Shown: positions 5,917 to 40,740, counted from the first letter of the stretch. The stretch is DNA of 64,000 bases from Planctomycetota bacterium (GCA_023150565.1 JAKLKR010000003.1:17823-81822); one strand, 5' to 3'. Notes: generated by a model not told the origin, from the sequence alone. Translations and numbers: made by a program.

Positions 5917-7805
5917 TCGACCAAAGCGAAGCTCGCGAGCGCCTGTACGCCGCCCACCGTCCCACCATCACCCGCTGGTGGGACGCCGACGGGCGCTTCA
6001 CGTGGCCCCAGGCCCCGGAGCATCACGGCGGCCTGCGCGCCATCCTCTGGCACTGCCTGTCCTACCTCGGCGGCGACGCCGAGTGCGTGCGCCGGGCCAA
6101 CGCGGTCATCCGCGCGCACCACCACCAGCAGCCCTGCCACTTCGCTCCCGGGGCGGCGATCGACGTGCTGGCGATGCACCGCGCCCGGCTGGAGCCCGAC
6201 GTCGCCGCGCTGCTGACCCGCTACCTCGAGCTGAACCTGTCGTACATGTCGACCGAGGACCTCAAGATCCACGGCTACAACGACAACCATCCCTTCAAGG
6301 CCATGCACGCCCTGATCCTGGGCGGCGAGCTGCTGGGCAGCCGCCAGCTGGTGGAGTGCGGGCTGCACAAGCTGCGCCAGGCCCTGGCGGTGTACCGCCG
6401 CAACGGCCTGCCCTGCGAATACAACTCGCCCACCTACACCCCGGTATCGCTGGTGCCGCTGGCGCACCTGGCCGAGCACGCCCGCGAGCCGGAGGCGCGC
6501 GACACCGCCCTGCGCCTGGAGCGCTTCTTCTGGCAGGACCTGGCGCTGCACTGGGATCCCCGCGCCGGCCTGCCCGCCGGCCCGCTCAGCCGCGGCTACG
6601 TCAACGACCACACCGGCCTGCTGGGCGGCGCCACCATGCTGCTCGCCCACCTCTTCCCGCAGCGCTTCCCCTTCAGCGTCGCCGACGAGCTGTTCACCAA
6701 GGGCGCGGCCAGCCGCCTGGTCGATCCCGCCACCATCGCGCGCTCGCTGCCGTTCTACGCCGCCCACCCGATCTGGTACGCCAGCGCCGACTACCACCTC
6801 GACGCGGCGATCGAGCGCGCGCTGTTCGACAAGCCGGCCGGCGCCTGCGTGCGTGGCACCGCCGAAACCGGCACCTGGGGCATCGGCTGGGACGATCCCG
6901 CCAAGCGCCCGGCCGACGCCCCCAAGGTCCATCACGCCGGCCCGCGGCGCAGCCTGTGCACCACCTGGTTCGGCCGCCGCCACAGCCTGGGCACCGCCCA
7001 GTACAGCTGGCTCGACAACGGCCAGGCGCACGGCTTCCTCGCCACCCTCGCCGGGCCGGTGGACGGCGACCAGACCGGGGCGGCGACGTGGTTCGCGCGC
7101 ATGTTCTTCGACGAGCGCTGCCCCTACGCCGAGCCGCCGCACACCGCCGACTGCTTCCGCGACGACGGCGACATCCGCACCCTCCAGCACCAGTCCACCG
7201 CCCTCGTGCTGTACAACCCCCATCCCCTCAACGGCCGCTTCAAGCGTCTGCGCACCGGGGTGTTCCGGCCGCTGGCCTTCACCCGCCCCAAGTCGGTGTG
7301 GATCGGCGAGACCGAGGCCCCGGCGCTCAACCTCACGGTCGACCGCCTGGCGCCGGTGGCGGTCGACGAGGGTGGCCACTACGTCGGCATCGTGCCGCTG
7401 CGCCTGCACGACCGCGGCAACTGCCGCAAGGCCCACCTGCAGGTCAGCGACCGCGGCGGCAAGCTGGCGGTGCTGATCTCGTCCTTCGAGGGCTGGGGGC
7501 CGCAGGCCTTCACCTACGAGCAGATCGTCGAGACCTGCTCGGGCTTCGCCTTCGAGATCCGCGACGCCGCCGACTTCGCCTCGTTCGCCGATTTCCGCCG
7601 CTGGCTGGCGGCGGCCACGGTCGAGGACGACTACTACGCCGACATGCGCACCACCGCCTACCGCCGCGACGGGCTGGAGCTGGCCACCTGCTATTCGCCG
7701 TACCAGTCCGCCTTCCGCTTCGCCGCCATCGATGGCGAGGCGCTGGCGGTGCCGACCCTGGCGATCACCGGCATGCCCGATCCCGGCCACGCCATCTCCC
7801 GCTGA
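5913..7805 (+). CDS. Conserved hypothetical protein (630 aa, no signal peptide), translationally coupled to the upstream GH-like gene
   Basis: ATGA start/stop overlap at 5913-5916. The product looks coherent and non-repetitive ('GYNDNHPFKAMHALILGG', 'NGLPCEYNSPTYTP'). No family recognised by eye. Confidence 0.7.
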   Translation: MIDQSEARERLYAAHRPTITRWWDADGRFTWPQAPEHHGGLRAILWHCLSYLGGDAECVRRANAVIRAHHHQQPCHFAPGAAIDVLAMHRARLEPDVAALLTRYLELNLSYMSTEDLKIHGYNDNHPFKAMHALILGGELLGSRQLVECGLHKLRQALAVYRRNGLPCEYNSPTYTPVSLVPLAHLAEHAREPEARDTALRLERFFWQDLALHWDPRAGLPAGPLSRGYVNDHTGLLGGATMLLAHLFPQRFPFSVADELFTKGAASRLVDPATIARSLPFYAAHPIWYASADYHLDAAIERALFDKPAGACVRGTAETGTWGIGWDDPAKRPADAPKVHHAGPRRSLCTTWFGRRHSLGTAQYSWLDNGQAHGFLATLAGPVDGDQTGAATWFARMFFDERCPYAEPPHTADCFRDDGDIRTLQHQSTALVLYNPHPLNGRFKRLRTGVFRPLAFTRPKSVWIGETEAPALNLTVDRLAPVAVDEGGHYVGIVPLRLHDRGNCRKAHLQVSDRGGKLAVLISSFEGWGPQAFTYEQIVETCSGFAFEIRDAADFASFADFRRWLAAATVEDDYYADMRTTAYRRDGLELATCYSPYQSAFRFAAIDGEALAVPTLAITGMPDPGHAISR

Positions 7806-7832
7806 GCGGGCCGGGGGACAGCCACCGCTCAG
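7802..7832. terminator. Short hairpin CTGAGCGG-N15-CCGCTCAG between convergent genes; both stop codons lie in the arms
   Basis: The 8-bp arms are complementary. TGA (7803-7805) and the reverse-strand TGA (7829-7831) are inside the arms. Confidence 0.4.
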
Positions 7833-10414
7833 TTCTCGCCCAGGTAGGTGCGCGACCAGCAGCTGAGCCAGTAGATGCCGAGCAGCACGCCGGTGCCGTC
7901 AGGGGCGCTGCCGTCCTGCCGGCCCAGGCCGTCGCGCAGCAGCTTGAGATGGCGCATGCCCACCCCGGTGCGCGGGTTCGTCTCGCCGATCACGGCGATC
8001 CAGGCGTCGAGGCCGTCATCACCGGCGGGCGGTGGCAGGTTGAGTTCGAGACCGGTGATGAAACGGCCGATCACGAAGAGATGCTGCACGCAGTCGGCGG
8101 TGCGCCCTTCGACATAGGCGACGTCGAGCGCGCTGATCAGCGACGCCACCCGCCGGCCCTCGGCCTGGCTGGCGGGCTTGGCGCGGCAGACGTGGGTCAC
8201 CGCCTCGGCCAGGTGCCCCAGCATCTCCTCGACCCGGCTGCCGGGCTTGCGCTCCTCCTGGGCAAGCAGGCGGTAGAAGCCGCCGGGCTCGCCGAGGAGG
8301 TCGCCGAGGTTGACGGTGAGGGCGCGGCGGTGCCGGCGGTCGCTGGTGGCGGTGGCGCGGCTCACCAGCTCGGCGGCGGCGGCGAACTCCTCCAGCCGCA
8401 CCAGGGCCTCTGAGCAGGCCACCACCAGCTTGGGCTCGCTGGCGCCGCGCAGGTAGGCGAGCAGGACCGGCCCGCTGGCCGGGCGGAAGCCGATCACCCC
8501 CAGCGTCCGGACGATCTCGCAGGCGGTGACGGGATCGGCCGCGGCCAGCAGGCGGATCAGCACCGTCTCGATGCGCCGGCGCTGCAGGTCGGGGATGCGG
8601 CTGGTGATCTGCGGCAGCAGCTCGGCGATCGGCAGGGTGATGCGGCGGAGGATGCTCTCCAGCGACGCGCCGGTGTGCTCCTGGCGCAGGGCGCGGACGA
8701 TCTCCGGGACCAGGTCGCTGCGCGGATCCTCGAGCCGGAGCAGCAGGGCGTCGATGGCGTCATCGCTGCCGATCGAGCCGAGGGCGGTGGCGGCCTCCTC
8801 GCGCACCTCCAGCGACGGGTCGTCGAGGCGGGCGATGAGGTCGGCGACCGCCAGGGCGGTGCGCTCCTCGCCGAGGCGGCGGGCGGCGTTGGCGCGATCC
8901 CCGCGGGTATCCGAGGCGCCCATGCTCCAGATGTTGGTGATGCTGGCGACCATGCGCAGCGGGTTGATCGTCACCAGGCGGTTGAAGGCGGTGCCCAGGG
9001 CCATCTCGCCGGTGCGGCGGCGCACCATGCACAGCAGCGGCACCGCGACCAGCCAGCAGAGCGCCGTCTGCACCAGCACGGCGAAGTGGAAGAAGTTGAG
9101 CGGGATGCCGGTCGGCGGCACCCAGGCCACGGGATGGGCGGTGAACCAGTCCATCACCCAGCCGCCGACCAGGGGCCCGGCGGCGGCGGCGAGGCCGATC
9201 AGCGCCCAATGCACGGCCATGAACATGGTGCGGCCCTGGACCGGCGAGAGGGCGCCGAGCAGGCTCATCTGCGCCAGGCCGATGCCGGAGAAGAGCGCGC
9301 CGGCCACCAGGTTGACCAGCAGGAGCGCCACCACCATCGAGGGCAGGGTCACGGCGAGGGCGAATGGCAGCTGCAATTCCACGCTGCCGGCATCGACCAG
9401 GAACCACACCGCGCCGCACAGCGGCGCCAGGACCATGGTGAGGATGCCGAAGTTGCGCGCCCCGACCCGGTCCATCACGTAGCCCCAGAGGAACCCGCCC
9501 CCGATCACCCCGACGGTGGCGGTGACCACCGTCCACGAGATCTGGGTATAGCTGGCCTGGTAGATGCGCTTGAGCGCCAGCACGCCGAACTGGCCGGTCA
9601 CCGACAGGGCGAACGACCACACGCACAGCGACAGGGTCAGCCAGCGGAAGTCGGCGCTGCGCAGCGGCGCCAGCACCCGTTCGGCGATCTCGCGGGCGGC
9701 GAAGCGTATCGGGACGGTGCGCGGCTCGGGCACCTTGAAGTGGATGAGGATGTCGATGCAGCCGAACAGGCCGGCGAGGCCGAAGACGAGGCCGTAGCCG
9801 AGGTAGGAGCCGGCCGGCGTGCGCGGATCGGGGAAGAGGTCGAGGGCCCAGCCGGCGAGCACGGTGGCGAGCAGGAACGGGATCATCACCACGCTCTGGC
9901 GCACCGCCCAGAAGGTGGAACGCGAGCGCTCGGGGATGAGATCCGCCATCCAGCCGAACCACACCGGCGTCGCCGCCTGCGCCAGCAGGCTGCTCGCCGC
10001 CAGCAGCAGCAGCAGGGCGAAGGCCATCAGCTGGGTGTTGCCGCCGCACAGCCAGGGCAGGCAGGCGATGACCAGCCAGCAGGCGCGGTGCAGAAGGGCC
10101 AGCACGCCCCAGTACAGCTTGCGCGTCGCCAGCATCTCGCCGACGAAGGCGGCCGGCACCTGCAGCAGCATGGCGAACTGCTGCACCGTCACCGCCATGC
10201 CAATGGCCACACCGCTGGCGCCGATGGCATCCATGAACATGGTCACCGGCATGCCGCCGGAGATCGCCACCCAGACCATGCCGAACGAACCGGCGATGAT
10301 GTTGGTGCGCATGCCGACGCGCAGCCGCCGGTCGTTGATCGGCTCGCCGCGGGTGTCGACGAGGCTGCTGGGCGGTGGGCTGGCGGGAAGCTTGGAGGAG
10401 GCGGCCGAGGGCAT
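7829..10414 (-). CDS. MFS-type transporter (about 12 TM, ~470 aa) fused to a ~390-aa C-terminal HEAT/armadillo-repeat domain
   Basis: N-terminal hydrophobic helices typical of MFS. C-terminal 'LIARLDDPSLEVREEAATALGSIGSDDAIDALLLRLEDP' is a PBS-lyase/HEAT repeat signature. Confidence 0.75.
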   Translation of the reverse strand: MPSAASSKLPASPPPSSLVDTRGEPINDRRLRVGMRTNIIAGSFGMVWVAISGGMPVTMFMDAIGASGVAIGMAVTVQQFAMLLQVPAAFVGEMLATRKLYWGVLALLHRACWLVIACLPWLCGGNTQLMAFALLLLLAASSLLAQAATPVWFGWMADLIPERSRSTFWAVRQSVVMIPFLLATVLAGWALDLFPDPRTPAGSYLGYGLVFGLAGLFGCIDILIHFKVPEPRTVPIRFAAREIAERVLAPLRSADFRWLTLSLCVWSFALSVTGQFGVLALKRIYQASYTQISWTVVTATVGVIGGGFLWGYVMDRVGARNFGILTMVLAPLCGAVWFLVDAGSVELQLPFALAVTLPSMVVALLLVNLVAGALFSGIGLAQMSLLGALSPVQGRTMFMAVHWALIGLAAAAGPLVGGWVMDWFTAHPVAWVPPTGIPLNFFHFAVLVQTALCWLVAVPLLCMVRRRTGEMALGTAFNRLVTINPLRMVASITNIWSMGASDTRGDRANAARRLGEERTALAVADLIARLDDPSLEVREEAATALGSIGSDDAIDALLLRLEDPRSDLVPEIVRALRQEHTGASLESILRRITLPIAELLPQITSRIPDLQRRRIETVLIRLLAAADPVTACEIVRTLGVIGFRPASGPVLLAYLRGASEPKLVVACSEALVRLEEFAAAAELVSRATATSDRRHRRALTVNLGDLLGEPGGFYRLLAQEERKPGSRVEEMLGHLAEAVTHVCRAKPASQAEGRRVASLISALDVAYVEGRTADCVQHLFVIGRFITGLELNLPPPAGDDGLDAWIAVIGETNPRTGVGMRHLKLLRDGLGRQDGSAPDGTGVLLGIYWLSCWSRTYLGEN

Positions 10415-10681
10415 GGCTGGGGCGGCGTCCCGGCCGCCGTGGGGCGGAGCCTAGCGGCGGAAGGCCGCGTCGGAAGAGAGCGGGTAGAGAGGTGCGCGGG
10501 GTGGCGGCCTGTCTGCCAGAGGACCCCGGGGCGAACCGTTGCGACGAGAAACCCCGACACGGTCTGCCAGGGCCTGCTGAGGACGTGATGCGAAGAGTGC
10601 CCCTGGGAGCGCAGGCCGTCCGCCAGCTGGGTGCCGGCCTGCTCACCTGCCTCGCCGGACCCTGCTGGTCCGGCGCTGAGT

Positions 10682-12022
10682 TCAGCGTCGGCGAACGTGG
10701 AGCAGGACCAGACCGCTCAGGACCAGGCCGAGACCGCCCAGGCCGCACCGCCCGCCACCACCGCCTCCGCCCGCCGGCAATGCCGGCAGGGAGGCCGCCG
10801 GCGGTAGCGGGACCGCCACCGCGGCACCGGTCGCCACCGGCATCTCCGGAGGAACGGCGCCGGCGGCTTCGTAGGCGCCGATGTCAGGGGCGGCGCCGCT
10901 GGTGGTGCGCGGCTCGGATGAGGCCGGATGGAGGTACTGCCGCGCCGGCAGCAGGGCCTGGCCGTCGGCGCTGCCGGGGTCGGCGCCGGCGTCGATCGCC
11001 GCCGCACCGGTCTTCAGATGGTAGTCGTAGGCCGCCCGCCCCAGCAGCGGATCGGTGGTGGTGGCGAGGTTGTGCAGGGCCGCCGCCGTGGTCAGGCCGC
11101 CGATGGCGGTGCCGGGCCCGAGGAAGAGGTTGTTCTCGACCCGTGCGAGGGTGGCGGCCGGATTGATGTACAGGAAGACGGTGGTGGTGCTGGGATGGTC
11201 GTTGACGATGGTGTTGCTGCACACGTAGAGGCGGCTGACCGGATTGGTCAGCCCCTCGGCGCCGTAGACCACGATCCGGCTGTGATTGCTGCTCGCCGGC
11301 CCTTGCTGGATGCAGTTGCCGCTGATGAAGCTCAGCCCGCCGTTGGGCAGGTCGATGGCGTAGCTGGCGGTGCCGGTGGCCTCGTCCATCAGGCGGTTGG
11401 CGATGATGTGGTTGCTCTGGGCCCGGCTCTTGAGGTTGTGCCCGACCTTGGTGTGGTGGCTGTAATTGCCGCGGAAGGTCAGGCTGCGGACGGTGCCGAT
11501 GTAGACGTTGTGGGCATAGCCGTTGTTGCCGCTGGAGCTGAATTCGCAGCCCTCGATCAGGATGTCGCTGGCGGGGTTGGCGCCGCTGAGGATGCCGTTC
11601 TCGTTCTGGTGGAACTGGCAGCCGCGCACGGTCAGGCCGGCCCCCTCCTGGCGGATGCCGGCGCCGTTCTCGTCCGGCACCTTGGCGTCGGTGAAGCGGA
11701 TGCCCTCGATCGTGGTGTTGGCGCCGGCGATGACCCAGATCGCCTTGCCGTTGGGGATGGTGAAGCCGGGCACCGACAGCACCGCGTACCCGCCCACCCC
11801 GCGGATGGTGAGGTTGTCCTTGGTCCAGGTGCAGACGTCGTTGAGGTAGGTGCCAGCGTCGATGCTGATGGTGTCGCCGTGGTTCGCGGCGGCGGCTGCG
11901 AGGCTGGGCTTGGCGTAGGTCTTGCCCGGGCCGACGGTCAGTTCGGCGGCGGTGGCCGACAGCGCCAACGTCCCCAGCAGGATGCCACGCAGGACTGGGG
12001 TGCAGGTGGTCATGACCGCCAT
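10682..12022 (-). CDS. Exported right-handed parallel beta-helix (pectate-lyase-fold) protein with a Gly-rich/Cys + TM + RRR C-terminal sorting-type tail
   Basis: Signal peptide 'LLGTLALSATAAE'. Repeated beta-helix turns ('NTTIEGIRF', 'LTVRGCQFHQNENGI', 'ILIEGCEFSSSGNNGYAHNVY'). Tail 'GGGGGGGRCGLGGLGLVLSGLVLLHVRRR'. The start could be 12013 or 12022. Confidence 0.7.
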   Translation of the reverse strand: MAVMTTCTPVLRGILLGTLALSATAAELTVGPGKTYAKPSLAAAAANHGDTISIDAGTYLNDVCTWTKDNLTIRGVGGYAVLSVPGFTIPNGKAIWVIAGANTTIEGIRFTDAKVPDENGAGIRQEGAGLTVRGCQFHQNENGILSGANPASDILIEGCEFSSSGNNGYAHNVYIGTVRSLTFRGNYSHHTKVGHNLKSRAQSNHIIANRLMDEATGTASYAIDLPNGGLSFISGNCIQQGPASSNHSRIVVYGAEGLTNPVSRLYVCSNTIVNDHPSTTTVFLYINPAATLARVENNLFLGPGTAIGGLTTAAALHNLATTTDPLLGRAAYDYHLKTGAAAIDAGADPGSADGQALLPARQYLHPASSEPRTTSGAAPDIGAYEAAGAVPPEMPVATGAAVAVPLPPAASLPALPAGGGGGGGRCGLGGLGLVLSGLVLLHVRRR

Positions 12023-12175
12023 GAGGGGCTCCGCAGGATCGAGATGATACCGGCCTCGCCTGCCGGACATGGATGGCATGGTGGGTGAACTGGAGGATTT
12101 GGCGAGCCGCCATCGCTCCTTGGCGCTCAGCGTGGCTCCTGCACAACACCGGTCGACTGCCGCCGTATAACAAAT

Positions 12176-12189
12176 TGCATCCGGTTGCA
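12176..12189. promoter_or_regulatory. Putative LacI-family operator TGCATCCGGTTGCA (13/14) in a divergent promoter region
   Basis: Lies between the beta-helix gene (start 12022, minus strand) and the GH-like paralog (start 12264, plus strand). A TATAAC hexamer sits 4 nt upstream. Confidence 0.5.
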
Positions 12190-12263
12190 TCCCAGGACCC
12201 CTTCGACTCTGCTGAATCGCCAGCGCCTGCACCGCTCCTTTCAACCCGCCGCCAAGGACCGCC

Positions 12264-15200
12264 ATGCCCACCCTCCGCCTGCTGCCCCTGCTCGTCCCCG
12301 CCCTGCTCGCGGTCGCCGCCGAGACCGCCCCCGTGCAGCTGCGCGGCTTCGGGCCGGTGGCCGCGGCAGCGCCCGCCGACGGGGCGCTGGCCGAGCGCAG
12401 CTTCGCCTGCGCCTCGCCGGCCCAGGCCCAGGTGTTCATGCACAAGCTGGCGCGCGACCTGGCGCTGTCGGCCACCGGCAGCGCACGCTGGGAGGAGCCG
12501 GCCATCGCCGGCGCCGCCCGCCGGGTGCTGGTGCGCGAGGGGCTGGGCGCCTTCCTGCCGGTGGTGGTGGGCAGCGAGGTGCGGGTGTTCGCCGCCGCCG
12601 AGGTGGCCGGCCTGGCCGCCGCCGCGCCGCGCCTGGCCGGCGCCGCCGGCTACGACCCGGCCTTCGCCTATCCGGCCTGGCTCGACCGCTTCACCACCGC
12701 CGGCATCGGCTCGTGGTATCCGATCTACTGGGGCCAGGGCAGCGACGGCAAGAAGCTGACCCAGCCCAACAGCGTGCCCGACCACCTCGCCTACTTCCGC
12801 GAGCACGGGCTGACCATCCAGCCCAATTCCGGCGGCTACATCCTGCGCAACCTGCTGCCGCTGATCCGCGCCGCGGGCCTGGGCTGGCACTTCTGCCAGT
12901 GGCACGAATGGAGCCAGGACCTGGCGCGCCTGGCGCCCGAGGACCTGGTCCAGCCCAGCGACCGCTTCAGCACCATGCCGCACTACTACGGCCAGGTGGG
13001 CGAGGGCGGGCAGCGCCTGCGCGCCTACCGCGACTGGACCTTCCAGCAGACCATGGCCACGGTGCAGGACGACCCCAGCCTGATCGACTGGCTCGACCCC
13101 AACGGCGAGGTCGGACCCTTCTCCTTCTTCACCTACTGGGACTTCTCCGAGGCCAACCGCCGCAACCTGGTGCGCTACCTGTCCACCGCCTGCGGCTACA
13201 CCCCCGAGAAGGTCGGCCAGGCGTGGTACGGCAAGCCCTTCGCCAGCTGGGACCAGGTGCCGATCCCGATGGACTACGACGTGTACGGCTGGCGCCCCGG
13301 CGACCCCCTCGCCGACCGCGCCTGGCGGGTGCATCCGGCCGACGACAAGGAACCGCTCGCCGCCGGGCTGGCCGCCGGCTGGCAGCGCGAGGACTGCGAC
13401 GATGCCGGCTGGGCGCAGATCCAGCACCCCGGCGCCGAACTGGGCTCGCTGCACTGGCGGGTGGGCCGCCGCACCTCGTGGAACCGCGGCACCATCACCG
13501 TCGACGCCGCCTGGCTGGAGCGCGCCCGCGCCCAGGGCCCGGTGTGGCTGACCATGGCCTCGCTGGTGCCGGCGGGGGGCTGGCGCAACCCCGACCGCCT
13601 GTGGATCAACGGGGTCGAGGCCGCCGCCCTGTCCAAGGCCCCCGGCCACGAGATGGTGGCCCAGGTCGAGGTCGGCGCGCTGCTGCGCCCGGGCGTCAAC
13701 CGCATCACCTACCTGCCGGCGGGGGCGATCGATGCCGGCATGGCCGGCCCGATGTTCCTCACCACCGCGGCCTTCACCGGCTTCCCCACCGCCGACGAGC
13801 GCCTCAACACCCGCAACCGCGACTGGCGCGAATACCAGTCGTGGTGCGTGATGGAGCGCATGGAATCGACCTTCAAGGCCATCCGCGGCATCGACCCCCA
13901 CCGCTTCATCAAGATGCACGCCGCCGAGGACAAGCACCTCGGCATCCCGCTCCAGGCCAGGTTCGGCTGCTACGGCCACAACACCGGCGAGGGCGGCTTC
14001 TTCCGCCCCTGGGACCGGCGCTTCGGCTACCACTACGACGTCCCCGGCTCGGCCGAGTTCGGCGGCGGCATCACCACCGCCGATGGGCTCAAGCGCTGGC
14101 TGGGCTGGTACACCTTCGAGGGCCTCAACGCCTTCGACAACTTCCACAACGTGCAGGAGATGATGTACAGCCCGGCGGCGCCGGTGTGGAAGGAGGCGTT
14201 TGCCTACCTCAAGCTGGCGCCGTGGCGCGACATCAGGCAGCCCGAGATCGCCCTGCTGTGGTCGGCGCGCGCCGCCCACCTGGTGTCGCGCCCGGCGCAG
14301 TACTGCTTCGACCTCGGGCGCGGCGACCTGCAGCCGATCGGCTACAGCTACACCTACGCCAGCGAAGCCACCATCGCCGACGGCAGGCTGGGCGGCGCCC
14401 AGGTGCTGTGGGACAGCGGCACCTGGGTGATGGACCCGGAGACGGTCGACGGCATCCGCCGCTGGGTCGAGGCCGGCGGCACCTTCGTCGCCCTGCACCA
14501 GACCGGCCGCCACACCTCGACACGCAGGGACGCCTGGCCGATCAGCGCGCTGACCGGCTTCCGGGTGAAGGAGGTGCGGCCGATGGAGGGCACGGTGGCG
14601 ATCCTCCACGACCAGCCGCTGCTCAAGGGCCTGGCCGGGCGCAACTGCTACAACCGCGGCACCAGCATCGACTACTCGGGCTACAACTTCGCCGATCAGT
14701 GCGTGGCCCTGGAGCCGGCGGCCGAGGGCGTGCAGCCCATCGCCCGCTATGGCGACGGTGCCATCGCCATCGGCCTGCGCAGGCTCGGCAAGGGCCGGGT
14801 GGTGGTGCTGGGCAGCCCGTTCTGGCGCGACTCCTACGACAAGACCGGGATGTGGTGGCCGGGCGAGCAGCAGAGCGAGTTCCTGCAGGACATCCTCGCC
14901 GGCCTCGGGCTCAGGCCGCTGGCAGCGTCCGCCGACCGCGCGGTGTGGCGCGAGCACTACCTCGCCAACAACGGCACCGAGGAGCAGCTGGCGCTGTTCA
15001 ACCCCACCGACGCCCCGCGCACCCTGTCGGTGGCCTGGCGCACGGCGAAGCCCCTCGCCCGCCTGCGCGACCCGCGCACCGGCGCCGAGGTCGCCGGCAG
15101 CGTCGACGGCACCACGGTGAACCTCGCCCCCATCACCCTGCAGCCGCTCGAGACGCGCATCGTCGCCGGCCAGGTGCAGGGCGCGCCGGCGGCGGCCATC

Positions 15201-33503: not shown

Positions 33504-33611
33504 CCTACACGCGGCAGTTGGTAGCGGCAGCAAGGCGCCGACACGCGATGTGTACTGGTGTACATGAGCGTGTCGGGAACGCAGCTGCCGCCTCCAAATG
33601 CCGCGTGTAGG
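33504..33611. terminator. 108-nt multi-tier imperfect hairpin between convergent genes (bidirectional terminator or REP-like element)
   Basis: Outer arms CCTACACGCGGCA/TGCCGCGTGTAGG (13/13). Middle tier about 12/14. Inner arms CCGACACGC/GCGTGTCGG (9/9). Apical TGTAC/GTACA. The hairpin ends 1 nt from the metG stop codon. Confidence 0.6.
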
Positions 33612-33612
33612 C

Positions 33613-35640
33613 TCAGTGCACGCGCTGGCCCGGCTTGGCGCCGGCGTCGGGCGACAGCACGAAGATCTCGGCGTCGCCGGGGCCGGCGGCCACCACCATG
33701 CCTTCGCTCAGGCCGAAGCTCATCTGGCGCGGCGCCAGGTTGGCCACGAACACCACCAGGCGGCCGGTCAGCTGCTCCGGCTTGTAGGCGGTCTTGATCC
33801 CGGCGAACACCGTGCGCTGCTGGTCGCCGCCCAGGGACAGGGTGAGCTTGAGGATCTTCTTGGCCTTGGGCACCTCCTCGGCCGCCACCACCCGCGCCAC
33901 GCGCAGGTCGACCTTCTGGAAGTCCTCGAAGGTGCACACCGGCGCCAGCGGCTCGGCGGCGAGCGCGGCCCCGTCGTCGACCGGGGCGGCCGCGGCCGGT
34001 GCCGCGGCGGGGGACTCGACCGCGCTGGCGGCGATCATCGCCTGCAGCTTGGCGGGGTCGACGCGGGCGACCAGGTGCTGGAAGGGCGCGATGGCGTTGC
34101 CCGCCAGCGGGCGCTGGGCGTCGCCCCAGGCGGCGATCGGCGCCCCGAGCAGGTGGCTGGCCTCGGCCGCCAGCCCGGGCAGCACCGGCGCCAGGTACAC
34201 GCACAGCTGGCGGAAGAGGTTGAGCGACACGGTGCAGGCGCGCTCCAGCTCGGCCGCCTTGGCGGGGTCCTTCTTCAGCGCCCAGGGCGCGGCCTGCTCG
34301 ACGAACTCGTTGGCGCGGTCGGCCAGGGCCATGATGCGGCGGGAGGCCTCGGCGAAGTCGCCCGCCTCGTAGGCGGCGGCGATGGCGTCGGCCTCGGCGG
34401 CGCCGCGCGCGAACAGCCCGCCGTCGTCGGGATAGCTGGCGGCCAGCCGGGGCACGAACTTGGCCGTGCGGCTGGCGAGGTTGGCCACCTTGCCCACCAG
34501 GTCGCTGTTCACCTTGGCGGCGAACTCGTCGAGGTTGAGGTCGAGGTCCTCGGCGCGCGCGGTGAGCTTGCTGGCGTAGAAGTAGCGCAGGTACTGCGGG
34601 TCGAGGTGGTCGAGGTAGGTGCGGGCGCGGATGAAGGTGCCCTTGGACTTCGACATCTTCTCGCCGTTGACGGTGAGGAAGCCGTGGATGTGCACCTTGG
34701 CCGGCAGGTCGATGCCGGCGGTCCTGAGCATCGCCGGCCAGAACAGGGTGTGGAAGTAGGTGATGTCCTTGCCGATGAAGTGGTGGATCTCGGCGCCGCC
34801 GCCCTCCCACCAGCGCTTCCAATCGTCGCCGTTCTTCGCGCACCAGTCGATGGTGCTGGCGATGTAGCCCACCGGGGCGTCAACCCACACGTAGAAATAG
34901 TTGCCGGGAGCGTCGGGGATCTCGAAGCCGAAGTAGGGCGCCGGTCGGCTGACGTCCCAGTCGCGCAGCTCGTCGACCAGGAAGGTGTTGGCGATCCACC
35001 GGGCCATGTCGGGGTGGAGCGTGCCGCTCGCGGTCCATTCCTTGAGGAAGGCGCGGAACGGCTCGAGGCGGACGAAGCAGTGCTTGGCCGAGCGCAGCTC
35101 GGGGGTGGCGCCCGAGAGGGTGCTGACCGCGTTCTTCAGCTCGGTGGGGCTGAAGGTGGCGGCGCACTTGTCGCACGAGTCGCCGTACTGGTCGGCGGCG
35201 CCGCACTTGGGGCAGGTGCCCTTGACGAAGCGGTCGGCGAGGAAGCAGCCGGCCTTGGGGTCGTAGAGCTGGGTGACGTCGCGTTCGACCACGTGCCCGG
35301 CGGCGCGCAGCGCGGCCCAGATGCGGTGCACCAGCTGGCGGTTCGATTCGCTGTCGGTGGAGCCGTAGTGGTCGAAGGCGATGCCGAAGCCGGCGAAGTC
35401 GGCCTGGTGGGCGGCGGCCATCTCGGCGATGATGGCCTGCTCGCTGCGCCCCTCCTGGCGGGCGCGGATCATGGTCGCGGTGCCGTGCGTGTCGTCGGCG
35501 CAGATGTAGACGGCCTGGTTGCCCACCAGCTTGTGGAAGCGCACCCAGATGTCGGTCTGGATGTACTCGACCAGGTGGCCGAGGTGGATGTGGCCGTTGA
35601 CGTAGGGGAGGGCGGCGGTGACGAGCAGGCGGCGGGGCAT
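33613..35640 (-). CDS. metG: Methionine--tRNA ligase with a C-terminal EMAP-II-like tRNA-binding domain
   Basis: '[13 protein letters not shown]' (HIGH motif), 'KMSKSKG' (KMSKS motif), a Zn knuckle 'CPKCG...CDKC' and the C-terminal '[10 protein letters not shown]...LSLGG' domain. Confidence 0.95.
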
Positions 35641-35664
35641 GGGCGGGGAGTGTGCGCCCCGCCC
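35641..35664 (-). terminator. GC hairpin GGGCGGGG-N8-CCCCGCCC, terminator-like, downstream of the flagellin gene and abutting the metG start codon
   Basis: The 8-bp perfect arms were read directly. They occupy the 24 nt immediately 5' of the metG ATG. Confidence 0.5.
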
Positions 35665-35682
35665 CGGCTCCGCCAGCGCCCG

Positions 35683-36531
35683 TCAGCCGAGAAGGCGCAG
35701 CACGTTCTGGGCGGTGAGCCCGCGCTGGGCCTGGGTGGCGATACCGGCCTGCATGAGGATGTTCTGGCTGGCCAGGTTGGCGGATTCGCGGGCGAAGTCG
35801 GTGTCGCGGATGGTGGATTCGGCACCGATCAGGTTCTGGCTGGCCACCGCCAGGCTGCGCAGCCCGGTCTCGAGCGCATTGGCCTGCACCGCTCCCAGGT
35901 CGCCGCGCTGGCGCCCGACCTCGGTCAGGGCGGTGTCCAGGCGGGTGAGGGCGTCGGCCGCCCCCTCGGTCGAGGACAGCGAGGCACCGGACAGGCCCAG
36001 CCCCTGGCGGTCGTAGCCGGTGGAGCTGCCGCCGATGGTGCTGGCGATGGTCAGGTCGATGCTCTGCCCGCTGTCGGTCCCGGTCTGGATGGAGCGGTCC
36101 TTGTAGCTGCCATCGAGCAGCTTGTTGCCGCCGTAGCGGGTGTTTGCGGCGATGGCGTCGATGGCCTTGCCCAGGGCCTGGAACTGCTTGTCGAGCACCG
36201 CCCGGGCCGAGGGGTCGAGCACCGCATCGTTGCCGGCCTGCAGGGCCAGGTCGCGCTGCTTCTGCAGCAAGGCGTTGGTCTGCTCGAGGGCGCCATCAGC
36301 CACCTGGGTCAGGGCGACGCCCTCCTCGAGCCCGTCGCTGACCCGGCTGAGCCCGGCGATCTGGGCGCGCATCTGCTCCGAGATGGAGAGCCCGGCGGGA
36401 TTGTCGGCGGCGCGGTTGATGCGCATGCCGGTGGCGAGGCGGGCAAGCACCAGCTGCATCTCGCGGTCGCGTTTGGCGAGCTGGTTCACCCCTTGCAGGG
36501 CTCCGGCCTGGTTTCCGATCGACAGGCTCAT
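35683..36531 (-). CDS. fliC: Flagellin (short, 282 aa; D0/D1 domains only)
   Basis: N-terminus 'LATGMRINRAADNPAGLSISEQMRAQIAGL' and C-terminus 'IRDTDFARESANLASQNILMQAGIATQAQ' are the conserved flagellin helices. Confidence 0.9.
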   Translation of the reverse strand: MSLSIGNQAGALQGVNQLAKRDREMQLVLARLATGMRINRAADNPAGLSISEQMRAQIAGLSRVSDGLEEGVALTQVADGALEQTNALLQKQRDLALQAGNDAVLDPSARAVLDKQFQALGKAIDAIAANTRYGGNKLLDGSYKDRSIQTGTDSGQSIDLTIASTIGGSSTGYDRQGLGLSGASLSSTEGAADALTRLDTALTEVGRQRGDLGAVQANALETGLRSLAVASQNLIGAESTIRDTDFARESANLASQNILMQAGIATQAQRGLTAQNVLRLLG

Positions 36532-36635
36532 GACGCACCCCCTGGCGGGACCACGCTCCGCCGCGCGTGCAGTCTACCACATCCGCGCGGCCAAGGGAGC
36601 GGCAGATGGAGCAACCGCCCCCATCGTCGCTGGTC

Positions 36636-36650
36636 TGGCACGGCCCTCGC
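36636..36650 (+). promoter_or_regulatory. Possible sigma54 promoter TGGCAC-N5-TCGC upstream of flhB
   Basis: Matches TGGCAC-N5-TTGC at 9 of 10 core positions. Lies about 50 nt upstream of the flhB ATG at 36702. Confidence 0.3.
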
Positions 36651-36701
36651 CCATGAAGCCAGCAAGGCCGCCGCACGTCGCGGAAGCCGACAGGAGCCGT
36701 C

Positions 36702-37766
36702 GTGCCGGAAGACGCCCAGGGCGGGGAGAAGACCGAACAACCGACACCCAAGAAGCTGGCGGATGCCCGCAACGAGGGCCAGGTGGCGGTCTCCCCCGAG
36801 GTCAATACGGCCCTATTGCTGCTGCTGGGCCTGATCGCCATCGGCCTGTGCTCGCCGTGGCTGTTCCAGGTCTCGGCGGTGAGCGTGCGCACCTGCATCC
36901 TCGAGGATCTCGGACGGGAACTGACCATCACCAGCGCGATGCAGACCATGCTCACCCTCGCCACCCCCTTCGCCGCCCCCACCGCGGTGCTGGTGGGACT
37001 GGCCTTCGCCGCCGGGCTGACCGCCTCGATCGGCCAGGTCGGGCTGCAGGCCTCGCTCAAGCCGCTGATCCCCAAGTTCAACCGGGTCAATCCGCTCACC
37101 GGCCTGCAGCGGCTGTTCGGCATGCGTGCGCTGATGCGCTTCGCGGTCAATCTGGTCAAGCTGATCCTGATCCTGTCGGTGGCCTGGCTGGTGCTGCGCC
37201 AGGACATCCCGCGGCTGGCCTACCTCGACCTCGATGTCGGCAAGCGCCTGGCCACCGACGCCAGCCTGATCTGGTGGCTGGGCCTCAAGCTGGCGGCGGT
37301 GCTGGGCCTGATCGCCCTCGCCGACCTCATCTACCAGCGCTGGCAGCACACCCAGGACCTGATGATGACCAAGCAGGAGGTAAAGGAGGAGATGAAGCAG
37401 GCAGACGGCGATCCCCTGGTCAAATCGCGCATCCGCCAGCTCCAGCGCCAGATGGCGCAGCGGCGCATGATGCAGGAGGTGCCCAAGGCCGACGTGGTCA
37501 TCACCAACCCCACCCACGTCGCGGTCGCGCTCAAATACGACGCCGGCGCCATGGCCGCCCCCATCGTCCTCGCCAAGGGCTACGACGAGGTCGCCCAGCG
37601 CATCAAGGCCATCGCCGCCGAGCACAACATCACCATGGTCGAGAACGTCACCCTCGCCCGCGCCCTGGCCAAGGAGGTCGATATCGGCAAGCCGGTGCCC
37701 ACCAAGTGGTACCAGGCCGTCGCCGAGGTGCTGGCGATGGTGTACCGGTTGAAGAAGGCGGGGTGA
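36702..37766 (+). CDS. flhB: Flagellar type III export apparatus switch protein FlhB
   Basis: N-terminus 'GEKTEQPTPKKLADARNEGQVAVS', four TM helices and the 'NPTHVAVALKY' autocleavage site. Confidence 0.95.
   Translation: MPEDAQGGEKTEQPTPKKLADARNEGQVAVSPEVNTALLLLLGLIAIGLCSPWLFQVSAVSVRTCILEDLGRELTITSAMQTMLTLATPFAAPTAVLVGLAFAAGLTASIGQVGLQASLKPLIPKFNRVNPLTGLQRLFGMRALMRFAVNLVKLILILSVAWLVLRQDIPRLAYLDLDVGKRLATDASLIWWLGLKLAAVLGLIALADLIYQRWQHTQDLMMTKQEVKEEMKQADGDPLVKSRIRQLQRQMAQRRMMQEVPKADVVITNPTHVAVALKYDAGAMAAPIVLAKGYDEVAQRIKAIAAEHNITMVENVTLARALAKEVDIGKPVPTKWYQAVAEVLAMVYRLKKAG
37627..37659 (+). repeat. 33-bp core (ACATCACCATGGTCGAGAACGTCACCCTCGCCC) inside flhB that is shared by all three flhB-3' copies; candidate att core
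   Basis: The same 33-mer, with 1-3 substitutions, occurs at 40599-40631 and 49961-49993. Copy B homology begins exactly at its left edge and copy C homology ends exactly at its right edge. Confidence 0.7.
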
Positions 37767-37975
37767 GGCCGACGGCCACCTGGGAGTAGGCGATACCCAC
37801 CAGGATGGAACTTGCCCCGGTCGCCAGCTGTGCCACCAGTCAATGCGTCGCAGGGCTGAATGCCGGCGCCGGGTGACCGACCAAGCAGCCTGTGATCCCA
37901 ATGACCACGCCCGTGTTGCGATGCGTCGTCTCTTCCAGGTCGCCCCTCGCACCAATTGACCCTGTCGTAGACACG

Positions 37976-37993
37976 TTACACTCTATGGTGTAA
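37976..37993. promoter_or_regulatory. Inverted repeat TTACAC-N6-GTGTAA overlapping the ArsR start codon; candidate ArsR/SmtB autoregulatory operator
   Basis: The perfect 6-bp arms were read directly. The last base of the repeat is the A of the ATG at 37993. Confidence 0.45.
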
Positions 37994-38355
37994 TGAAGAA
38001 CAGCATCTCACCAACCTGTACCCCGAAGGCGGACCTGGCGAAGCGACCGTTCCTCTCCAAGCGCGAGTCGGCGGACCTCGCCGGCCTCTTCAAGATCCTC
38101 GCCAATCCCGTGCGGCTGCGGATGGTGCATGCCCTGGTGGTCCAGGGACAGATACCCCTGACCGAACTGGGAGAGGCCGTCGGGCTGAAACCGCAGGCGG
38201 CCTCCAATCAACTCCAACGCCTGGTGGCCGCCGGCTGCCTGGCAAAAGAGCGACGAGGCAAGTCGGTGTTCTACCGCATCTGCGACCCTTGCGTTCCCAT
38301 CCTCATCGAACGCGGCTGGTGTCTGCTGGAAGACGCGAAAGGCCGTCGGTCATGA
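37993..38355 (+). CDS. ArsR/SmtB-family metalloregulatory repressor
   Basis: 'LFKILANPVRLRMVHAL' and 'LGEAVGLKPQAASNQLQRLVAAGCL' form the winged HTH. C-terminal Cys cluster 'ICDPCVPILIERGWC'. Confidence 0.85.
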   Translation: MKNSISPTCTPKADLAKRPFLSKRESADLAGLFKILANPVRLRMVHALVVQGQIPLTELGEAVGLKPQAASNQLQRLVAAGCLAKERRGKSVFYRICDPCVPILIERGWCLLEDAKGRRS

Positions 38356-39986
38356 CCCCGTTCCCCGACCTGGACGAAGGGTTGCATCAGTTGCGGGCCG
38401 CCACCCAGGCGAAGAAGTGCTGGACCTGCAACTGCTTTCACAGCTCGTTGCGCTCCCTGGAGCGCGAACTGCCGGCGGATCGCCGTCCGCCTGTCCTCAA
38501 CGAGGCAGTCACGGCGGCCCAGGCCGTCCTGCAACCGATCCGCTACGAGTGCCTGGGCTGCGACCCCTGCCACCCGCCCCAGGCGTTGAATGCCCTCGGC
38601 GTGGCGGGCGAGGCCTGCGGCGCCGCCCCCGTCGAATCGCGGGCGGGATGGCCGCCCCTGCCCGGAAGCTACCACGTCCTGCGCTATTCGGCGCCGGTGG
38701 CAATCTGCACCCTGACCGACGAGAATCTCGCCCACCGTATCGCGGCGGCAGGATCGCCGCAGATCGCCATCACCGGTCCCATGCAGACTGAAAATCTCGG
38801 CATCGAGCGGTTGATCGCCAATCTGGTAGCCAACCCCAACATACGATTCCTCATCCTGTGCGGGAATGACACCGAGAAGGCAGTCGGCCACCGGCCCGGC
38901 GCCTCCCTGGCCGCCCTGGCACGATCTGGCCTGGACGGGGCCAGCCGCATCATCGACGCGCCTGGCAGGCGGCCGGTCATCAAGAACCTTGATTCCGCCG
39001 CGGTCGAGCGATTCCGCCAGCAGGTGGAGATCGTCGACCGCATCGGCAACGCCGACATCCCCGCCATCCTCCATGAAGTCGCCTCCTGCGCTGCCCGCTC
39101 GCCCGGACCAGCCACGCCGTTCGCCAGCGCCCGCCAGATCGAGACCATCACCGGACGGGTTCCCGAGCGCATGGTCAGCGACCCGAGCGGGTATGTGGTC
39201 ATCGACGTCGACCGGGCCAACCGTCAGTTGGTGGTGGAGCACTACACCACGGCTGGCGTCCTCGATCTGATCATACGCGGTGCCACCGCCAACGAGGTGA
39301 TGGCACCGGTGTTCGCCAGGAATCTGGTGTCGCGCTTGGACCACGCCGGGTATGTCGGCAAGGAGTTGACCCGTGCCGAGGCGGCCTTGCGCAGCGGCGA
39401 CGGATTCACACAGGATGCCGCGCCCGAGCAGCGTCGTGTCGCCATCGAGTCGGCCGCGTCCTGCGGCAGCGGCTGCGCCTGCTACGCTCCACCCGCACCC
39501 ACGTCCAACCCACACGCCGATTGCGGATGCGCCCCGCAGCTGGAGTCGTCAATGACCACCCGCACGAAGCCCGTCCTGGTCGTCGTTGGATTGCTGGCTC
39601 TGACGGCCGTCGCCCTCGGCCTCCGCACGACTCGGTCGTCAGCCGGTACCGCCGAGTCTCCGGCAAACCCGCCGGCGAATGCCGTGGATGCTCCGCTCGG
39701 CATCAACGCTTTCATGCAAATGGAGCGCCAACCGAAGGAAGCGGTCGCGGTCCAGGGTGTCGTCAACGGCCACTTGGCCGATCAGCATCTCCTGTTGCTC
39801 GTCGATGACGCGGATGGGGCCTGTGCCGGCCAGTCCTGCTGCGCGCCGCTGATCCTGCCGGTTCGTTGGCCCGGGACGGTACCGACCAACGGAACGGCGG
39901 TGATCGCCACCGGACAATTCGGAACCGAGGGCGGCAAACAGGTCTTCCTGGCGACGAGCGTCGCCCCTCGCGGAGGCAAGCCGTGA
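38352..39986 (+). CDS. Cys-rich membrane-anchored MtrA-like (corrinoid-binding fold) plus DUF4346-like protein, 544 aa
   Basis: ATGA overlap with arsR. N-terminal CWTCNC...CLGCDPC. MtrA-like blocks 'SAPVAICTL', 'ITGPMQTENLGIERLIANLVANPNIRFLILCGND..AVGHRPGASLAALARSGLD'. DUF4346-like 'DPSGYVVIDVDRANRQLVVEHY'. 'CGSGCAC..CGC'. TM helix 'PVLVVVGLLALTAVALGL'. A ~120-aa tail with 'CAGQSCC'. Confidence 0.7.
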   Translation: MTPFPDLDEGLHQLRAATQAKKCWTCNCFHSSLRSLERELPADRRPPVLNEAVTAAQAVLQPIRYECLGCDPCHPPQALNALGVAGEACGAAPVESRAGWPPLPGSYHVLRYSAPVAICTLTDENLAHRIAAAGSPQIAITGPMQTENLGIERLIANLVANPNIRFLILCGNDTEKAVGHRPGASLAALARSGLDGASRIIDAPGRRPVIKNLDSAAVERFRQQVEIVDRIGNADIPAILHEVASCAARSPGPATPFASARQIETITGRVPERMVSDPSGYVVIDVDRANRQLVVEHYTTAGVLDLIIRGATANEVMAPVFARNLVSRLDHAGYVGKELTRAEAALRSGDGFTQDAAPEQRRVAIESAASCGSGCACYAPPAPTSNPHADCGCAPQLESSMTTRTKPVLVVVGLLALTAVALGLRTTRSSAGTAESPANPPANAVDAPLGINAFMQMERQPKEAVAVQGVVNGHLADQHLLLLVDDADGACAGQSCCAPLILPVRWPGTVPTNGTAVIATGQFGTEGGKQVFLATSVAPRGGKP

Positions 39987-40576
39987 ACCGCCTGACCCAG
40001 GCCATCTGGTCCATTGGTGGCTTCATCGGCGTCTTCTCCCTCCATGCCGGCTGGCATGCCCTCTTGCCCAGCACGGTCGACGCCGCCCAGTCGCGCTGGG
40101 TGACGGTGCCGACGGCCGCTCCGCCCTGGCATCAGACCTACCTGAACGGGGGCGATGTGTGGCTCGGCCTGTCCATCGCCAGCGCCGGAGCCTTCGCCAC
40201 CTGGGCGATCCGCCGCTGGTGGCTCCGCCGCACCGCCCTCATGGGGGTCGCCGGCGGCGAACTGCTGATCCCGACCTGCGTCCTGCTGTTCGGGGTCGAT
40301 CTCAAGCTCGCTGGCAGCCTGGCGATGGCGGTCAGCCTGCCAACCATGCTCATGGGATTCGTCCGCTACAGCCGCGATCCTACCTTCGCCGTCATCAGAC
40401 GTGAACGCCGTTTCCTGGCGTTGCTCTGCCTGGGATCGCTGATCGGGGTCGCTCTGGGTGGTCTGCTTCTGGGCGCCGTGCCGACCGATTGGCTCCTCGG
40501 TGGTCTGTCGTTCATCCTCGCCGTTTCAACCCTGAAGACGTGGATGCACGCCCAGCCGGCAGCACGCACCTCGTGA
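39983..40576 (+). CDS. TauE/SafE-family permease, half-size (197 aa)
   Basis: GTGA overlap with the upstream stop codon (GTG start). 'GVAGGELLIPTCVLLFGVDLKLAGSLAMAVSLPTMLMGFVRY' and 'LGSLIGVALGGLLLG' resemble one TauE repeat unit. The N-terminal third is atypical. Confidence 0.55.
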   Translation: MNRLTQAIWSIGGFIGVFSLHAGWHALLPSTVDAAQSRWVTVPTAAPPWHQTYLNGGDVWLGLSIASAGAFATWAIRRWWLRRTALMGVAGGELLIPTCVLLFGVDLKLAGSLAMAVSLPTMLMGFVRYSRDPTFAVIRRERRFLALLCLGSLIGVALGGLLLGAVPTDWLLGGLSFILAVSTLKTWMHAQPAARTS

Positions 40577-40598
40577 TTGCTTCTCGCTCCATTAATCC

Positions 40599-40740
40599 AC
40601 ATCAGCATGGTCGAGAACGTCGCCCTCGCCCGCGCCTGGCGAAAGTGGTCGACATCGGCAAGCCGGTGCCCACCAAGTGGTACCAGGCCGTCGCCGAGGT
40701 GCTGGCGATGGTGTACCGGCTGAAGACGGCGGGGTGAGGG
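40599..40740 (+). pseudogene. Displaced or duplicated flhB 3' end (copy B), frameshifted
   Basis: Aligns to native 37627-37769 at about 93% identity with a 1-bp deletion near 40639. It encodes ...VVDIGKPVPTKWYQAVAEVLAMVYRLKTAG* versus the native ...VDIGKPVPTKWYQAVAEVLAMVYRLKKAG*. Confidence 0.9.

Follow-up and report, generated by a model that had tools for sequence, protein, structure and literature searches.

A mobile, ArsR-linked operon built around an MtrA-domain protein, present as a partly decayed copy in a Planctomycetota bacterium

The closest described relatives of the protein at the center of this study are MtrA and the cytoplasmic MtrA homologues of methanogens (5LAA, 5L8X, and 8Q3V), Rossmann-type corrinoid proteins in which His84 is the lower cobalt ligand and Glu54 its hydrogen-bond partner (PMC4915002). 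That bacterial homologues of MtrA exist is the subject of one sentence in the same article; beyond that sentence, open-access papers and preprints yielded nothing on the function of the bacterial family, on DUF4346, or on the gene cassette described here. A second point of comparison is the HgcA/HgcB system, which combines a CFeSP-type corrinoid protein bearing a cap-helix Cys with a 2[4Fe–4S] ferredoxin partner; an ArsR-like regulator beside hgcAB is reported in a preprint (bioRxiv 10.1101/2022.10.17.512643). Further parallels come from the MerP–MerT–MerA relay of mercury resistance, from CadC/CadA-type Cd/Zn/Pb operons, and from modular methyltransferases of the MetH and MtaABC types. Here, we describe a cassette in a 64,000-nucleotide stretch of the genome of a Planctomycetota bacterium (GCA_023150565.1 JAKLKR010000003.1:17823-81822; hereafter the window, along whose full length all coordinates are counted) in which the gene for an ArsR/SmtB-family repressor precedes that of a membrane-tethered MtrA/DUF4346 corrinoid-type protein. 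The cassette is a conserved, horizontally mobile operon, of which this region holds an inserted copy. ArsR-controlled metal(loid) operons usually carry pumps, reductases, and S-adenosylmethionine-dependent methyltransferases. The domains and the database family found here were known already; what is new is the proposed ArsR-controlled metal(loid) operon with a corrinoid core, whose chemistry may be categorically new.

The cassette comprises three plus-strand open reading frames (ORFs; 37993–38355, 38352–39986, and 39983–40576) flanked by an intact flhB gene on one side and a displaced duplicate of the flhB 3′ end on the other. They are translationally coupled, as the initial annotation of the window had proposed, through an ATGA overlap at 38352 and a GTGA overlap at 39983. 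That annotation, made from the sequence alone, read the products as an ArsR repressor, a Cys-rich, membrane-anchored MtrA/DUF4346-like putative corrinoid protein, and a half-size TauE permease; the first two readings held and the third did not. For comparison, we searched for relatives of the central protein, which had matches in 216 species, and retrieved 80 loci from species-representative genomes together with two metagenome contigs, giving 82 related loci (83 with the window).

The central gene (38352–39986) encodes 544 residues, in which both domains named in the initial annotation were recovered by profile searches: the MtrA corrinoid-binding domain at residues 96 to 253 (38637–39110; PF04208, E 1e–40) and DUF4346 at residues 277 to 355 (39180–39416; PF14251, E 6e–20, 72.2 bits against a gathering threshold of 29.6). 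The His of a VGH motif had been proposed to occupy the cobalt-ligand position, and along the HMMER alignment this residue, H180, indeed aligns with MtrA His84, while E147, in the loop TENLGIER, aligns with MtrA Glu54. Neither H180 nor E147 varies among 76 homologs, and the TENLGIER loop is invariant across phyla. The best solved relatives were the Methanothermus fervidus MtrA homologue with cobalamin (5LAA, E 1e–32) and the MtrA chains of Mtr complexes. An AlphaFold model of the protein (mean predicted local distance difference test score, pLDDT, 73, and >90 across most of residues 11–250) superposes on 5LAA with a Foldseek template-modeling score of 0.84, a root mean square deviation of 2.3 Å, and 42% identity, and the whole-model Foldseek search returned nothing besides MtrA matches and weak OB matches. 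The alignments and the model show that the protein has a true MtrA corrinoid fold with its ligand residues intact, and we predict that it binds a cobamide. The protein aligned to positions 12 to 389 of NF002128 (PRK00964.1-6), a 390-residue profile with the same order of Cys domain, MtrA, and DUF4346, at 422 bits against a cut-off of 568, and it scored 131.9 bits against TIGR01111, the equivalog model of true MtrA, whose cut-off is 249.15. Judged from the NF002128 alignment, it has the architecture of that family but belongs to a branch that has diverged and gained a further half at the C terminus. Because both scores fall below their cut-offs, we conclude that it is an MtrA-domain protein and not MtrA itself.

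Around this core are Cys-rich elements, each of which had been listed in the initial annotation and each of which is present. The novel N-terminal helical domain (residues 1–95; 38352–38636) carries the predicted Cys block, in which C23, C26, C28, C67, C70, C73, and C89 are invariant in the alignments and H30 nearly so; modeled alone, the domain reached a pLDDT of 83. Its CxxCxxC...CP spacing shows a non-significant similarity to ferredoxin motifs among PDB sequences, and with no Pfam match and no fold match (see below), assignment of the domain as a ferredoxin or iron–sulfur module stays a guess. Downstream of DUF4346, the metallothionein-like cluster C371-G-S-G-C-A-C...C391-G-C393 (39462–39530) lies in a disordered linker and is followed by a single transmembrane helix at residues ∼407 to 424 (39570–39623; helix 411–421 in the model). 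The extracytoplasmic tail beyond it is a periplasmic OB-like beta domain (39684–39971) bearing C491 and C496-C497, with weak Foldseek matches to the OB folds of RPA and PriB (E ∼1e–2). The OB domain is fused to the corrinoid protein, as in the window, in L001, L006, P0002, P0003, P0057, P0065, and P0097, and recurrence of the fusion in the last six led us to reject joining of separate genes during assembly as the origin of the 544-residue ORF.

Compared with MtrA, the cassette protein has the same Rossmann-type corrinoid fold at ∼40% identity, retains the His84 ligand and the Glu54 relay, and is likewise anchored by a single transmembrane helix C-terminal to the corrinoid domain. It differs in being bacterial and mobile, in standing outside any mtrEDCBAFGH operon and under ArsR control, and in adding the seven-Cys N-terminal domain, DUF4346, the Cys clusters, and the periplasmic OB domain. 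Its resemblance to HgcA/HgcB, which the initial annotation had judged not to be homology, lies in the combination of a membrane-associated corrinoid protein with Cys-rich or Fe–S-like elements and terminal Cys pairs. That judgment is borne out by the Pfam and NCBIfam scans, which for the central protein gave only MtrA-type and DUF4346 models: the HgcA corrinoid domain is of the CFeSP type with a cap-helix Cys whereas that of the cassette protein is of the MtrA type with a His ligand, HgcB is a ferredoxin whereas the cassette has no ferredoxin gene, and unlike hgcAB the cassette is found in many aerobes.

The first gene (37993–38355) encodes a 120-residue protein whose identity as an ArsR/SmtB-family metalloregulator is secured by NF033788 (64.7 bits against a cut-off of 55) and by Pfam HTH_20 (28.6 against 27); no NCBIfam equivalog model reached its cut-off for this regulator. 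The inverted repeat TTACAC-N6-GTGTAA that had been noted over its start codon reads at 37976 to 37993, ending on the A of the ArsR ATG, with a −35-like hexamer, TTGACC, at 37956 to 37961. The degenerate pattern TTACAY-N6-RTGTAA occurs 36 times in the 938 kb of the 82 related loci, and all 36 sites lie directly upstream of an arsR-like gene; in the 64-kb window the single match is the one at 37976. In many loci the repeat is lengthened to ATTACAC-N6-GTGTAAT. This confinement of the pattern to sites upstream of arsR-like genes is strong comparative evidence for an autoregulated operon, in which the repressor would bind a family-specific palindromic operator lying over its own promoter and start codon. 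The linkage to ArsR also extends to the relatives: in 63 of the 83 loci, window included and more than 10 phyla represented, an arsR-like gene is directly upstream of the corrinoid gene on the same strand, usually overlapping it.

Comparison of the 63 regulators identified four commonly retained cysteines, Cys9 (54/63), Cys55 (44/63), Cys100 (52/63), and Cys110 (56/63), of which the regulator in the window has Cys9, Cys100, and Cys110 and is without the usual alpha-3 Cys55. The pattern of Cys9/Cys55/Cys100/Cys110 matches none of the named ArsR/SmtB site types (alpha3, alpha3N, alpha4C, alpha5, and others) exactly. A CDPC tetrapeptide common to the regulator and the N terminus of the central protein had been taken as a hint of a shared ligand. 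The tetrapeptide does occur in both proteins, but its first Cys (Cys97 of the regulator) is present in only 2 of the 63 homologs, and the corresponding motif in the central-protein family is C-L-G-C-[ED]-[VP]-C; we therefore rejected CDPC as a common ligand site and regard the match as a coincidence.

The family to which the central protein belongs is large. More than 1100 clusters at 90% identity match it, and its carriers include Planctomycetota, Verrucomicrobiota, Nitrospirota, NC10, Desulfobacterota, Acidobacteriota, Chloroflexota, Bacteroidota, and several proteobacterial classes. Most homologs are 380 to 400 residues long, end in a C-x-CGS-x-C cluster, and are named in their sources either “DUF4346 domain-containing protein” or “tetrahydromethanopterin S-methyltransferase subunit A.” A word-index search for homologs of the OB-like tail alone gave no match, and it took a jackhmmer run on the retrieved loci to recover its family, which is present in 36 of the 83 and is marked by an LPVRW motif and a conserved Cys pair. 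The OB-like domain is usually encoded by its own gene, directly downstream in most of these 36 loci, as a transmembrane-anchored protein of ∼150 residues. Next in order, in 31 loci, is a protein of ∼175 residues with four transmembrane helices, an invariant GCxLxGCCGSPML in the third helix, a Cys in a cytoplasmic loop, and a C-terminal CxC. When this four-helix family was compared with four MerT sequences, hhalign returned a probability of 44% over 48 columns, with the CC, P, and K/R-P aligned; the likeness of its CC-x-x-P hairpin to TM1–TM2 of MerT is suggestive only. In three metagenomic proteins (P0028, P0037, and P0092; 590–618 residues), the corrinoid protein is fused to the four-helix GCCGSP protein and has no OB tail, which argues for physical association of the two. 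Rosetta-stone fusions thus come in two kinds, corrinoid protein with OB tail and corrinoid protein with four-helix protein. An intact cassette runs from the repressor to a cytoplasm-facing corrinoid protein tethered to a periplasmic OB-like domain, and on to the four-helix membrane protein.

We found metal-resistance genes near many copies. Within 7 kb of the cassette, across the 82 loci, a CadA/ZntA-type P1B ATPase occurs in 13 and a CzcA-type resistance–nodulation–division (RND) pump in 13, with ArsM-like genes in 4 and MerT in 4. The five P1B ATPases that are nearest neighbors match Zn/Cd/Hg/Pb ATPase models, and those scored individually (L001, L034, and the Planococcus plasmid L092) scored higher with Cd/Zn/Pb-type than with copper-type models. 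In L001, the closest relative with surrounding sequence, a CadA-type ATPase precedes arsR and an RND system follows. In Dechloromonas hortensis MA-1 (L072, 2952–14494; NZ_SSSQ01000014.1), the cassette sits between a canonical merR–merTPCA operon and a Tn3-family transposase and is apparently cargo of a mercury-resistance transposon; the genes next downstream of it there encode a MacB-type ABC exporter and a DsbD_N-domain protein. The chromosome of Dechloromonas sp. ARDL1 holds two copies (L053 and L073, positions 6342–15125) with 99.97% identity across at least 8.8 kb, beginning ∼260 bp upstream of the arsR-like gene. Planococcus plasmids (L092, 2465–8282, pA30H1; also L091) carry ArsR, a CopZ-like protein, a CadA-type ATPase, a 459-residue variant of the central protein, and an ISL3 transposase; in the variant, three extra metallothionein-like ACGCxDxxC repeats follow the N-terminal Cys domain. 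Heterogeneous flanks, duplicated copies, and transposases are the signs of mobility, and the link to metal(loid)s is strengthened by neighborhoods rich in metal genes.

We tentatively favor, with slightly less than even confidence, the reading that the cassette encodes a corrinoid enzyme supplied by a cysteine relay that responds to metal(loid)s. A soft metal(loid) such as Hg, Cd, Pb, Zn, or As(III), or else some thiol-reactive species, would release the repressor. The bound species would then be handed inward in the manner of MerP, MerT, and MerA, from the periplasmic Cys pair to the membrane CC motif and on to the cytoplasmic Cys clusters, and the corrinoid would transform it through Co(I)/methyl-Co(III), either by methyl transfer to or from a metal(loid)-thiolate or by two-electron reduction. 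The N-terminal Cys domain may supply electrons or a thiol-activating metal site. A more specific and more ambitious version, namely a hitherto unrecognized corrinoid-dependent pathway for the methylation, demethylation, or reduction of a soft metal(loid) (for example Hg(II)/methylmercury, As(III), Cd, or Pb) that works independently of hgcAB, merAB, and arsM and travels on mobile elements in many aerobic and anaerobic phyla, seems to us unlikely as matters stand.

As the mer operon does, the cassette combines a periplasmic Cys-pair protein and a CC-x-x-P membrane protein that also has cytoplasmic Cys with a cytoplasmic enzyme whose Cys arms are flexible, and, like mer, it can be transposon-borne, with one copy beside merRTPCA. 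It differs in having no family-level sequence match to mer proteins, an ArsR-type rather than MerR regulator, and a corrinoid protein in place of a flavin disulfide reductase as the terminal enzyme. With CadC/CadA-type operons, it shares a thiolate-rich ArsR/SmtB repressor, a palindromic operator, and, in several loci, linkage to a CadA/ZntA-type ATPase, whereas its core gene is not a pump and its operator and Cys pattern are specific to the family. The joining of a corrinoid module to Cys-rich modules, possibly binding Zn or Fe–S, recalls MetH and MtaABC-type methyltransferases, and elsewhere DUF4346 accompanies pterin-binding proteins (TIGR00284 match); unlike those enzymes, the cassette has no recognizable pterin-binding barrel, Zn-thiol MT2 domain, or activation domain.

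Several observations weigh against a relay that ends in corrinoid chemistry on a metal(loid). Metal genes are neighbors in only a minority of the loci. A His-on corrinoid normally methylates nucleophiles such as thiolates and not metal cations. No MtrH or other pterin-binding methyl donor recurs among the ∼294 neighbor genes of the 82 loci, which extends to the family the earlier remark that no MtrH or pterin-methyltransferase partner is present. Neither the four-helix family nor the OB tail was matched by any Mer, Pfam, or NCBIfam model, and the N-terminal domain found no fold in the PDB by Foldseek at E <5 (best 5.6). Finally, in ∼14 mostly proteobacterial loci a CcdA/DsbD-like membrane gene replaces the tail/four-helix pair, joined in 10 by a gene for a transmembrane-anchored thioredoxin-like protein, and this pairing fits electron export equally as well as metal transport.

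These substitutions also favor the main rival, a thiol–disulfide reductant relay, to which we assign a low probability. Here, the corrinoid/Cys protein would be a cytoplasmic reductase whose electrons pass through a DsbD-like conduit (the four-helix CC protein or CcdA) to a periplasmic Cys protein, so that the OB tail or a thioredoxin-like protein is kept reduced under envelope thiol stress from metals or oxidants, and the regulator would be a BigR-like redox or persulfide sensor. Genes for AhpC/TSA, Redoxin, DJ-1, and DsbD_N proteins recur among the neighbors, and the regulator has weak BigR and TsoR matches, both of which fit such a relay. On the other side, the P1B ATPase, Czc, and mer neighbors point to metals themselves, DsbD_2/CcdA-like proteins can also be organoarsenical permeases (ArsG match), and MacB-type ABC exporters, found in ∼8 loci, are a third alternative partner. 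No disulfide reductase is known to employ a corrinoid.

Metal buffering is, in our estimation, quite improbable. The Cys clusters would sequester soft metals or pass them to efflux pumps as a metallochaperone does, and the MtrA-like domain would be a scaffold or its corrinoid non-catalytic. Two observations speak for this idea: the clusters vary in number and position, as with the Planococcus metallothionein-like repeats, and the gene on the Planococcus plasmid shares its operon with CopZ and a CadA-type ATPase. Invariance of the cobalt-ligand His, its Glu partner, and the TENLGIER loop across phyla is hard to square with a scaffold, and the membrane relay proteins are conserved too. Less probable again is a role in handling cobalt or corrinoids, whether cobamide storage, salvage, or protection or the sensing of cobalt, under an ArsR-type Co/Ni/Zn sensor. 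A corrinoid fold is present, and Czc (Co/Zn/Cd) pumps are near in 13 loci. The alpha-5 sites of Co/Ni/Zn sensors in the ArsR/SmtB family use His, Asp, and Glu, however, whereas the conserved ligands of this regulator are Cys; moreover, an Rfam scan of the window matched no family and no cobalamin riboswitch, and genes for B12 transport or biosynthesis are not recurrent among the neighbors in the 82 loci. Genuine one-carbon metabolism by a bacterial counterpart of the methyl-tetrahydromethanopterin:coenzyme M methyltransferase, as the database name “subunit A” and the fit to the NF002128 architecture would have it, is very improbable given the sub-cut-off scores with both equivalog models, the absence of mtrB–H genes next to the cassette in the window and of any recurrent Mtr subunit among the neighbors in the 82 loci, the ArsR control, the mobile metal-resistance contexts, and the occurrence in phyla without methanogenesis.

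The copy in the window has lost part of this system. Its third ORF (39983–40576, 197 residues), initially read as a half-size TauE permease, consists of the first 84 codons of the four-helix GCCGSP gene (39983–40234) joined in frame to the last 113 codons of a tauE/TSUP gene (40235–40576; codons 85–197 of the chimera). In residues 1 to 84 the product hardly differs from the N-terminal part of P0123, an intact 177-residue member of the four-helix family, after which the two sequences diverge totally; residues 85 to 197 correspond to residues 158 to 270 of P0122, a complete 270-residue TauE/TSUP protein, and are near-identical from ALMGVAGGELL onward (BLASTP against P0122, 68% identity across query residues 50–197). 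The DNA breakpoint falls at 40233 to 40235, where there are a few bases of microhomology: the matches to L088 and L087 end at 40235 and 40234, respectively, and the tauE loci L083 to L086 match from 40233 at 79% identity. The Pfam TauE profile is barely passed (32.9 bits against a cut-off of 32.6), with the match placed on the first half of the profile because the family has an internal repeat. A complete TauE/SafE (TSUP) protein has two repeats and ∼240 to 270 residues, and of the 270 residues only the last 113 are present. Nor is TauE a dedicated partner, as had been suggested, since no other locus links tauE to the cassette. Around the intact tauE homolog (P0122; L083–L085) lies a ParE/Phd toxin–antitoxin pair; in L084, tauE follows a gene for a solute-binding protein and has another ArsR-type gene close by, and in L083 an IS110 transposase is nearby.

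Two further assemblies, L089 and L090, both of which break within the flhB repeat, contain the same chimeric ORF with an identical junction, and we accordingly rejected an assembly artefact as its cause. Because the intact 177-residue gene is retained in L088, a contig 99.4% identical to the window, the rearrangement must be recent. The fusion removed the CC motif, so that the CC-x-x-P region likened to MerT is missing from the truncated copy, and it thereby destroyed the real third gene of the cassette. The operon was probably crippled by a microhomology-mediated deletion that joined codons 1 to 84 of the four-helix gene to the tauE tail. The cassette in the window is a partly decayed copy in which, at best, the regulator and the tethered corrinoid protein are still functional.

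The flanks record how the cassette arrived. The upstream gene (36702–37766, plus strand, 354 residues), which we take to be flhB from established knowledge of FlhB and the NPTH autocleavage motif in its translation, is intact and was the insertion target. Its last 140 nucleotides and two more beyond the stop codon form the first copy of a direct repeat (37627–37768, plus strand). The second copy (40599–40739, plus strand), a displaced and frameshifted flhB 3′ fragment, is 94 to 95% identical, in agreement with the bracketing repeats first noted, and it carries an indel and is therefore a dead flhB fragment. This 142-nucleotide duplication brackets the island, and there is no recombinase gene between the copies. 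By blastn, the DNA in common with the closest relatives spans 37934 to 40234 (plus strand), L087 matching that interval at 84.6% identity and the L088 contig matching 39276 to 40235 at 99.4%, and the sequences beyond it differ between loci. The earlier view of the region as an inserted island is upheld. The lower GC content given as a further sign of foreign origin fared less well: a dip exists, but it is small (0.64–0.69 inside against 0.65–0.78 in the flanks). The repeats look like the scar left by an element that targets the flhB terminus and has since shed some of its own DNA. In the simplest history, a larger element would have inserted at the flhB 3′ end, duplicating it, and a later deletion between the four-helix gene and tauE would have removed the intervening DNA, possibly including a recombinase, since none is left in the island.

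Scans of the window for consensus promoters and terminators gave no match. Between 33598 and 37955, both strands contain spurious long antisense ORFs (for example 33598–36834, 1078 codons, opposite metG and flagellin), which are typical of DNA of ∼70% GC and which mean that ORF length by itself is no proof of a gene here.

For the window, the message is a narrow one: an inserted island with a destroyed third gene. For the family, a vitamin-B12-type protein connected to a putative cysteine relay forms the conserved core, and the strictly conserved operator, the gene fusions, and the cultured carriers (Dechloromonas hortensis, Fontivita pretiosa, and the Planococcus plasmids) make the proposals directly testable. 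If the metal link is real, metal resistance and the methyl cycling of metal(loid)s would both acquire a new enzymology, and hundreds of database entries named “tetrahydromethanopterin S-methyltransferase subunit A” would need correcting. If a corrinoid pathway for metal(loid)s proves true, metal biogeochemistry would gain a new route, and methylmercury turnover in the absence of hgcAB or merB would have a candidate mechanism.

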